From IMG/VR virus record IMGVR_UViG_3300037714_000050: DNA of 59,821 nucleotides; one strand, 5' to 3'. Numbering within the stretch: position 1 is the first letter of the stretch; every line of letters begins with the position of its first letter. Made by a program: the position numbers and the translations under genes. A model generated the notes under the pieces. That model was not told the DNA's origin. It ran no database searches and saw only the letters and a program-made list of their open reading frames with translations. Source of the stretch: a virus. Below are positions 58,971 through 59,106 of the stretch, piece by piece.

Positions 58971-59106
58971 GTGGCGGGCCGAAGCAAATCGCTTAACGGG
59001 ACCAGGATGTTGGTGGTTCAAATCCACCTCTCCCGACTTCCCCCGGGAGGTAGCTCAATCCGGCAGAGCACCTGGATAAAGCGATCTGCACCTACATGAC
59101 CGCCAC
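58971..59106 (+). ncRNA. Y RNA-like module 4: circularly permuted tRNA-Pro(CGG)-like domain
   Basis: H1 GUGGCGG/CCGCCAC and H2 GCAAAUCGCUU/AAGCGAUCUGC. Order is CGGGA-CCAGG-AUGUU-[GGUGG UUCAAAU CCACC]-UCUCCCG-A-cuucccc-CGGGAGG-UA-[GCUC AAUCCGGCA GAGC]-A-CCUGG-AU. Confidence 0.75.

Follow-up and report, generated by a model that had tools for sequence, protein, structure and literature searches.

A probable YrlA-type Y RNA with a permuted tRNA-Pro-like domain in a ten-module array beside a phage rsr gene

The rsr Locus and Its Y-RNA Array

We analyzed the viral sequence IMGVR_UViG_3300037714_000050 (IMG/VR) over its whole length of 59,821 nucleotides (nt), hereafter the window, with the focus on an RNA element at 58971..59106 (+) that joins a Ro-binding stem to a tRNA-Pro-like domain. 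An earlier reading of the bare sequence (the original prediction) took this element to be a circularly permuted tRNA-Pro(CGG) and suggested a YrlA-type tRNA mimic. The element is the fourth of ten tandem modules (58653..59816, +), and is therefore called module 4; it is very probably one cistron of a ten-Y-RNA array serving the phage Rsr protein, namely a YrlA-type RNA with a tRNA-shaped mimic. It has the features by which YrlA is recognized: an rsr gene nearby on the same strand, a GNCGAAG motif near the 5' end, a long stem and the order T arm, closed acceptor, D arm. The mimic proposed by the original prediction is thus backed by rsr immediately downstream and by the motif that defines bacterial Y RNAs (PMC4201824).

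The rsr gene (184..1887, +) encodes a Ro60 orthologue of 567 amino acids, with matches to the Pfam families TROVE (2.3e-44) and vWA_Ro60 (6.5e-57) and to PHROG 850 ('RNA-binding protein'). Positions 1-127 of the window are identical to 59695-59821 (a 127-nt overlap of the ends), so the genome is circular or terminally redundant, and rsr lies about 0.8 kb downstream of module 4, on the same strand, across the circular junction. The run of ten modules stops 57 nt ahead of a terminator hairpin and rsr. This terminator-like hairpin of 13 bp, followed by UUCUUUCU (132..163, +), stands between the last module and rsr, and a GAGGAGG ribosome-binding site stands between this hairpin and rsr. On the other side, a Band-7/SPFH gene (57706..58605, +; Pfam Band_7, 1.4e-24) ends 48 nt before module 1, and a candidate promoter, TTGCGC-17 nt-TAGGTT (58615..58643, +), keeps its position and sequence in locus L001, as TTGCGC-17-TAAGTT. 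L001 holds the closest relative of this Rsr (66% identity).

All ten modules, M1 (58653-58788), M2 (58801-58869), M3 (58881-58957), M4 (58971-59106), M5 (59120-59251), M6 (59275-59369), M7 (59386-59494), M8 (59509-59628), M9 (59643-59746) and M10 (59759-59816, which is 65-122 in the terminal overlap), lie on the plus strand, are closed by a stem and share motifs. GGGYCGRA is found just inside the 5' stem strand in 10/10 modules, usually with GGUUAYC a few bases beyond it and CAYAUCC before the 3' stem strand. The same stem is used throughout, and most modules are without a full tRNA body.

Most modules are separated by linkers of the ACAACUKNA type. The linker before module 4, UUACAACUGAAAA (58958..58970, +), is of this type, which recurs between modules and is also present in L001; the linker after it is GUAUAACUUCAUA (59107..59119, +). 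YUAYAAC(U) or ACAACUKNA directly 3' of the closing stem was seen in most modules of the window and of L001 and also in other loci (window 58789-59758, L001 3500-3870 and the right-hand columns of the viral alignment described below), and the ACAACU-type linker is a candidate processing or 3'-tail signal. The linker at 59252-59274 instead carries a small hairpin, CAGAAAACAUGUUUUCUG.

Structure of Module 4

In the minimum free energy fold, the 5' strand of the closing stem P1, GUGGCGG (58971..58977, +), pairs with CCGCCAC (59100-59106); these two 7-nt strands are exactly the limits that had been given to the element. Directly after the 5' strand we read GCCGAAG (58978..58984, +), an instance of the GNCGAAN0-1G motif, and further on the 5' strand of stem P2, AUCGCUU (58988..58994, +), which pairs with 59079-59085 and whose last bases begin the family motif (G)GUUAYC, in module 4 CUUAAC. 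P1 and P2, of 7 bp each, form together with a 3-bp helix a long, interrupted stem of about 17 bp. The remaining 3' strand of this Ro-binding region, C UGC ACCUACAUGA (59086..59099, +), is the counterpart of CACAUCC in other modules, and is nearly identical in the L001 orthologue.

Above the stem lies the tRNA-like domain. The 5' side of an internal loop, AACGGGA (58995..59001, +; AACGGGG in L001), consists of two extra A and positions 34-38 of the tRNA (CGGGA), and is followed by the 3' strand of the anticodon stem, CCAGG (59002..59006, +), paired with CCUGG at 59071-59075 (helix 4, 91% of alignment cells paired). Then come a variable loop of 5 nt, AUGUU (59007..59011, +), whose U48 could form a Levitt pair with A15, and the T arm GGUGG-UUCAAAU-CCACC (59012..59028, +; helix 5, 98.6% paired). 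The acceptor (59029..59050, +; helix 6) is a capped hairpin of 7 bp with C1:G72, formed by UCUCCCG, A73 plus the connector CUUCCCC, and CGGGAGG. U8, A9, the D arm GCUC-AAUCCGGCA-GAGC with G18 and G19, and A26 complete the body (59051..59070, +; helix 7), and the 3' side of the internal loop, AUA (59076..59078, +), begins the family motif UAAAC. The domain therefore contains the T loop UUCAAAU, the D-loop GG, U8 and the A15/U48 option, and its helices covary among relatives.

RNAfold gives module 4 a free energy of -52.7 kcal/mol (z = -2.8; 0/200 shuffles fold as well), in a shape that sets a 5-bp 'anticodon' stem on a long interrupted stem, with hairpins for the T arm, the capped 7-bp acceptor and the D arm. 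This bears out the permuted tRNA topology and the loop-capped acceptor of the original prediction, whose 17 listed elements, joined in order, match 58997-59077 exactly. Its placement of the 5' and 3' ends in the anticodon loop did not hold: in the encoded RNA this site is a 7/3-nt internal loop, AACGGGA opposite AUA, that runs into the Ro-binding stem. The 7-nt loop AUCGGGA does arise when the halves are rejoined, but only after AA (58995-58996) and A (59078) are dropped; on the encoded strand an A, rather than a U, precedes C34. The acceptor is closed by an 8-nt loop, and is without the free 5' end and the 3' CCA end of a tRNA-Pro.

Relatives and Covariation

L001 carries a homologous array of six modules, with the same promoter-like site and terminator hairpin, and module 4 has its orthologue in the third of these modules (3596-3738). 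The two RNAs hardly differ in the Ro-binding stem or on either side of the internal loop, and the tRNA body has diverged and is still paired. Retention of the proline elements in a homologue had been named as a test of the tRNA reading, and the orthologue does keep CGGG, C1:G72 and A73; re-permuted, it is also called as tRNA-Pro(CGG).

From module 4 and this orthologue we built a covariance model, R1, which gave 76 matches (E up to 1) in 56 viral rsr loci and 67 matches (E up to 0.01) in 80 bacterial rsr loci. All are on the rsr strand and most are just upstream of rsr; since several loci have three to seven R1 matches, arrays are common. In the viral alignment, which was fitted to R1 and is thereby biased towards the structure, 94.8% of cells are paired (37-48% with the partners slid) and 37/38 pairs change on both sides. 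P1 and P2 covary, with 96% of cells paired, and in P1 7/7 pairs are changed on both sides among relatives.

In two Sorangium genomes, R1 also matches the junction of a tandem tRNA-Pro(CGG)/tRNA-Pro(GGG) beside rsr (38-40 bits), which is a prediction of the published model of a dimeric-tRNA origin for YrlA (bioRxiv 10.1101/312249). In eight myxobacterial loci (L125, L099, L102, L074, L073, L078, L094 and L134) rsr lies inside large same-strand tRNA arrays, and these arrays include tandem tRNA-Pro genes; in Minicystis rosea as many as 37 tRNAs are called within 11 kb. Full-length YrlA-type matches are rare there: one is weak (L125, 25.7 bits) and the rest are partial, on junctions of adjacent tRNAs. 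Capped acceptor loops that start with ACCA were noticed in six other places (L011:3482, L008:3657, L052:3207, L128, L100 and L056:2553); ACCA, a discriminator with an encoded CCA, is expected if the hairpin derives from two successive tRNAs, taking in the 3' end of the first, a spacer and the 5' end of the second. In L022 (3257-3712), tRNA-Pro(UGG) and tRNA-Trp genes stand directly upstream of a YrlA and rsr; the acceptor of this YrlA is CGGGGUG/CACCCCG, and tRNA-Pro ranks first among its matches.

Likeness to tRNA-Pro

When the 5' half of module 4 is placed before its 3' half, ARAGORN calls tRNA-Pro(CGG), with 0/1000 calls in shuffles, so the re-permuted sequence scores as a tRNA as the original prediction required. 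The native, unpermuted module gives no tRNA call, and with all 10 junction nucleotides kept the call is 'tRNA-???(aacg)', with no clean isotype. ARAGORN also calls tRNAs on Y RNAs themselves ('tRNA-Ser(tga)' in L001, 'tRNA-Pro(cgg)' in L096); the reference set for comparison of bodies, 349 tRNAs called by ARAGORN in all fetched loci, was accordingly cleared of 25 calls that overlap Y RNAs or R1 matches. Against this set, the top five of the 349 reference tRNAs for re-permuted module 4 are all Pro (Mann-Whitney p 7e-10), and Pro still ranks first when the anticodon loop is removed (p 4.7e-6). The L001 orthologue likewise ranks Pro first (p 3.7e-5).

Bacterial tRNA-Pro is identified by G35, G36 (with G37), A73 and C1:G72. 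G35, G36, G37, A73 and C1:G72 are present in module 4 and in its orthologue, but with the anticodon bases in an internal loop and the acceptor closed. The family motif GGUUAYC ends in C34; G36-G37-A38 is the GGA that precedes the stem in many relatives with a varying middle base (CAGGA, CCGGA, UCGGA, CUGGA, AAGGA); and the 3' side, AUAAA in module 4, is the family motif UAAAC. Because C34 and GGA sit in family-wide motifs, 'CGG' is weak evidence for proline identity. As to the body, tRNA-Pro is the best match for 19/77 family modules, and a Pro-like body is therefore a family tendency. The likeness of module 4 to tRNA-Pro is real but not unique. The module is best seen as a YrlA in which an unusually complete tRNA-Pro-like form was either retained or reached by convergence.

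The rule that the anticodon-like triplet matches the isotype of the body was considered and rejected: over 74 modules the mean rank of the triplet's isotype is 9.7 of about 20 (permutation p 0.76), and it is ranked first in 8/74 (p 0.2). The match holds individually for two modules of the window, M4 (Pro) and M1 (Glu).

Module 1 (58653-58788) is a second full tRNA-like Y RNA, with a tRNA-Glu-like body (Mann-Whitney p 2e-11; 1e-9 without the loop) and a CUUUCAC loop. Its D arm (UCGUCCAGCGGCCUAGGACA) and CCUUUCACG closely resemble tRNA-Glu(UUC), the Y stem is attached at the 26/27 junction, with the anticodon-like hairpin intact; its orthologue in L001 keeps a Glu-like body, with the loop CUUGAAU. 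In the viral and bacterial alignments, many YrlAs have as their 'V' hairpin CCA-[C U N N N R A]-UGG, in which 3 bp enclose a loop of 7 nt. This loop fits the anticodon-loop consensus (C32 U33 ... R37 A38), its middle triplet being variable. Where a module has a true anticodon stem, the GGA before the stem corresponds to G36-G37-A38. G36pG37 is the context recognized by TrmD.

Proposed Role and Alternative Explanations

By analogy with characterized systems, the array would be transcribed from a promoter after the Band-7 gene, and the transcript would be cut at the conserved ACAACU-type linkers, as in the case of characterized Y RNAs. The paired 5' and 3' ends with GCCGAAG would form the Rsr-binding stem, so that each module could then bind Rsr, and the tRNA-like domain may recruit or occupy a partner that recognizes tRNAs, either polynucleotide phosphorylase (PNPase), in a RYPER-type complex, or tRNA-modifying or -processing enzymes. 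Module 4 may moreover be cut by RNase P and CCA-tailed like the YrlA of M. smegmatis, which is plausible because it has a 7-bp acceptor followed by A-C. Its sequence fits the dimeric-tRNA origin published for YrlA, the dimer being in this case one of tRNA-Pro.

Several observations count against a YrlA-type cistron of this kind. The acceptor stem of the L001 orthologue has only 5-6 bp, which may mean that processing by RNase P is not conserved. A pattern specific to module 4 found, among viral contigs, only the L001 contig, and among metagenome contigs the L001 contig and five chance matches (no T arm, no R1 match); with one orthologue found, conservation of the Pro features amounts to a single comparison. 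A scan with the E. coli consensus found no promoter upstream of the array, and the candidate promoter is placed through its conservation in L001. The Rfam model for YrlA (RF02553) matches 58988-59088 with 30.3 bits (E 3.5e-4), below its gathering threshold of 69. The same model gives only 36-46 bits for loci of the Gordonia polyisoprenivorans, Mycolicibacterium and mycobacteriophage types, and Gordonia, Mycolicibacterium and mycobacteriophage clades are listed as YrlA-bearing (PMC4201824), so that the threshold is uninformative for the actinobacterial clade.

A narrower reading, which refines the YrlA-type explanation and does not exclude it, takes module 4 as a specific tRNA-Pro decoy or surrogate for prolyl-tRNA synthetase (ProRS), TrmD, tRNA-targeting toxins or defence nucleases, through which proline-specific or G36G37-specific host factors would be titrated or delivered to Rsr. 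We consider it unlikely. The joint occurrence of CGG, G37, A38, C1:G72, A73 and a 7-bp acceptor followed by A-C speaks for it, together with the first rank of Pro even without the anticodon loop, the CGGG, C1:G72 and A73 of the L001 orthologue, the combination of a tRNA-Glu-like body with a CUUUCAC loop in module 1, the PNKP-type end-healing enzyme of the phage (see below) and the cleavage by RNase P and CCA tailing of M. smegmatis YrlA in vivo (PMC4201824). However, the triplet fails to predict the body isotype across the 74 modules (p 0.76), C34 and G36-G37-A38 belong to family-wide motifs, a Pro-like body is frequent among family members irrespective of their triplet, the bases of the 'anticodon' sit in an internal loop where an A, not a U, precedes C34, and neither an RNA ligase nor a tRNA-specific factor was found among the open reading frames (ORFs) scanned. 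In its most explicit form, which is rather improbable, module 4 would be more than a tRNA-shaped handle of a general kind, namely a functional, Ro60-carried surrogate of tRNA-Pro: RNase P would open the 7-bp acceptor, A-C would be completed to ACCA by the CCA-adding enzyme, and the resulting two-piece RNA would be recognized by ProRS and/or TrmD through G35, G36, G37, C1:G72 and A73, or alternatively by a host nuclease that targets tRNA-Pro. If this were true, the array would be a set of Ro60-tethered, isotype-specific tRNA decoys, with module 1 for Glu and module 4 for Pro.

Two further explanations seem to us very improbable. Module 4 could be a true permuted pre-tRNA gene like those of red algae and some archaea, from which the stem is excised, the ends are circularized and the acceptor loop is opened to yield a decoding tRNA-Pro(CGG). 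Its topology is that of such genes, re-permutation gives a good tRNA-Pro and the possibility has been raised for YrlA (bioRxiv 10.1101/312249), but the junction is a 7/3-nt internal loop and not a bulge-helix-bulge (two 3-nt bulges, 4 bp apart), a splicing endonuclease is not known in bacteria (bioRxiv 10.1101/312249), and three extra nucleotides would need precise removal. Excision would remove the very stem that is best conserved between the orthologues and that carries the Ro-binding motif, and the nine neighbour modules share this stem, mostly without a full tRNA body; with no bulge-helix-bulge, no ligase in the ORFs scanned and the stem conserved most, a decoding route is unlikely. Alternatively, module 4 could be a decaying, functionless remnant of two tandem tRNA-Pro genes, a reading favoured by the tandem tRNA-Pro genes that stand beside rsr in other genomes and have junctions like module 4. 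Yet all helices are intact and covary across more than 100 relatives, the stem flanks are nearly invariant in the two orthologues, the Rsr proteins of which share 66% identity, and module 4 keeps register with the nine other modules, the whole set lying between a conserved promoter-like site and a terminator.

We therefore keep to the YrlA-type explanation. The class, its presence in phages, its tRNA mimicry and its likeness to permuted tRNAs are already published (PMC4201824; bioRxiv 10.1101/312249). New are this YrlA member in an unsequenced actinophage lineage, the array size of ten modules, and the degree of tRNA-Pro likeness, including a split remnant of the anticodon loop. With a 7-bp acceptor, A73 then C, a true anticodon stem and this split remnant, module 4, whose body ranks as tRNA-Pro, is among the most tRNA-complete Y RNAs with a tRNA-like domain; it gives sequence-level support to the published dimeric-tRNA origin, and it is a convenient substrate for probing RNase P cutting, CCA tailing, modification or charging of Y RNAs. 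The ten-module array beside a phage rsr suggests that phages carry sets of Ro60 adaptors.

Other Features of the Phage Genome

Using tblastn, Ro60 relatives were found in 353 phage records, nearly all of them actinophages, and among the matches listed they are mostly annotated as 'Ro-like RNA binding protein'. The array had no blastn match in GenBank phages, and a megablast of 25 kb of the genome returned only 51-nt matches, in mycobacteriophage capsid genes; this phage is without a close sequenced relative.

In 30 ORFs scanned with Pfam and PHROGs, no RNA ligase, RtcB or tRNA-specific factor was found. Further ORFs of the window with links to RNA or to defence encode a protein with a PNKP phosphatase domain of the end-healing type (37776-38576), an Rv2179c-like 3'-5' exoribonuclease (46737-47288), a Cas4/RecB-like exonuclease (56696-57682, shortly before the Band-7 gene), an Acb2/Tad1 hairpin-domain protein (3015-3521) and a P22 AR_N/Ant-like protein (2221-3015). 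A type II hammerhead ribozyme (RF02276) matches 33578-33639 (+) with 40.8 bits, against a gathering score of 37. ARAGORN further calls three back-to-back tRNAs, Tyr-GTA, Gln-CTG and Cys-GCA, at 4199-4435 (+); Rfam backs Cys (60 bits) and Gln (50 bits, in a focused search only), and the 84-nt 'Tyr' call (4199-4282) has no Rfam match and an unusual T arm.

Comparison With Known Systems

The permuted tRNA genes of Cyanidioschyzon merolae, other algae and one archaeon are cut at a bulge-helix-bulge and ligated into functional tRNAs, and the similarity between YrlA and permuted tRNAs from algae and archaea has already been discussed (bioRxiv 10.1101/312249). The resemblance to algal genes drawn by the original prediction extends to the topology of module 4 but not to its junction, which has no bulge-helix-bulge, and its stem is a conserved Ro-binding element.

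An association of Band-7, YrlA and b7a-tRNA has been described, with YrlA occasionally adjacent to Band-7 (bioRxiv 10.1101/312249). As in those loci, a Band-7/SPFH gene lies directly beside a tRNA-like non-coding RNA; Band-7/b7a-tRNA loci centre on RtcB, whereas in the ORFs scanned here there was no RtcB or other RNA ligase.

Among phages, one Ro60 has been shown to bind both Y-like RNAs of the phage and the PNPase of the host, in a RYPER-type complex (PMC12135203). Thermus phage phiLo, as presented there, resembles our locus in having a phage Ro60 with CGAA-motif Y-like RNAs (Yrl1 and Yrl2) just upstream; those RNAs, two versus the ten found here, are given as stem-bulge-stem structures, with no tRNA-like domain in the description consulted (PMC12135203).

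The YrlA/YrlB locus of M. smegmatis shares the actinobacterial setting and the position of the Y RNAs upstream of rsr, but has two RNAs instead of ten (PMC4201824). Several Y RNAs are processed there from one precursor, and cleavage of YrlA by RNase P, attributed mainly to its 7-bp acceptor stem, is followed by addition of CA, which completes CCA (PMC4201824). Module 4 likewise has a 7-bp acceptor, then a discriminator and C.

Chen et al. (2014; PMC4201824) found YrlA RNAs on the rsr strand, no more than about 4 kb away from that gene, in 254 bacteria and 22 phages. Binding by Rsr and tRNA-type modifications (Psi55, D) are further marks of the class. YrlA RNAs are defined by GNCGAAN0-1G near the 5' end, the proposed contact site of Ro60/Rsr, by a conserved YUAY, and by a T arm, a closed 'acceptor' hairpin and a D arm, with an A15:U48 alternative noted (PMC4201824); for this family an L-shaped crystal structure (PDB 6CU1) and the dimeric-tRNA origin model are available (bioRxiv 10.1101/312249). 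Module 4 agrees with YrlA (RF02553) in the same-strand rsr, GNCGAAG, the long stem formed by the ends and topped by the YUAY motif, the domain order, the T loop UUCAAAU, the GG of the D loop, U8 and the possible A15:U48 pair, and lies below the Rfam gathering threshold like other actinobacterial members. It differs from most YrlAs in having a separate 5-bp anticodon stem and a 5-nt variable loop in place of their 'V' hairpin. Published YrlAs are described as being without an anticodon loop and their loci hold one or two RNAs, whereas module 4 keeps a split remnant of that loop and belongs to an array of ten.

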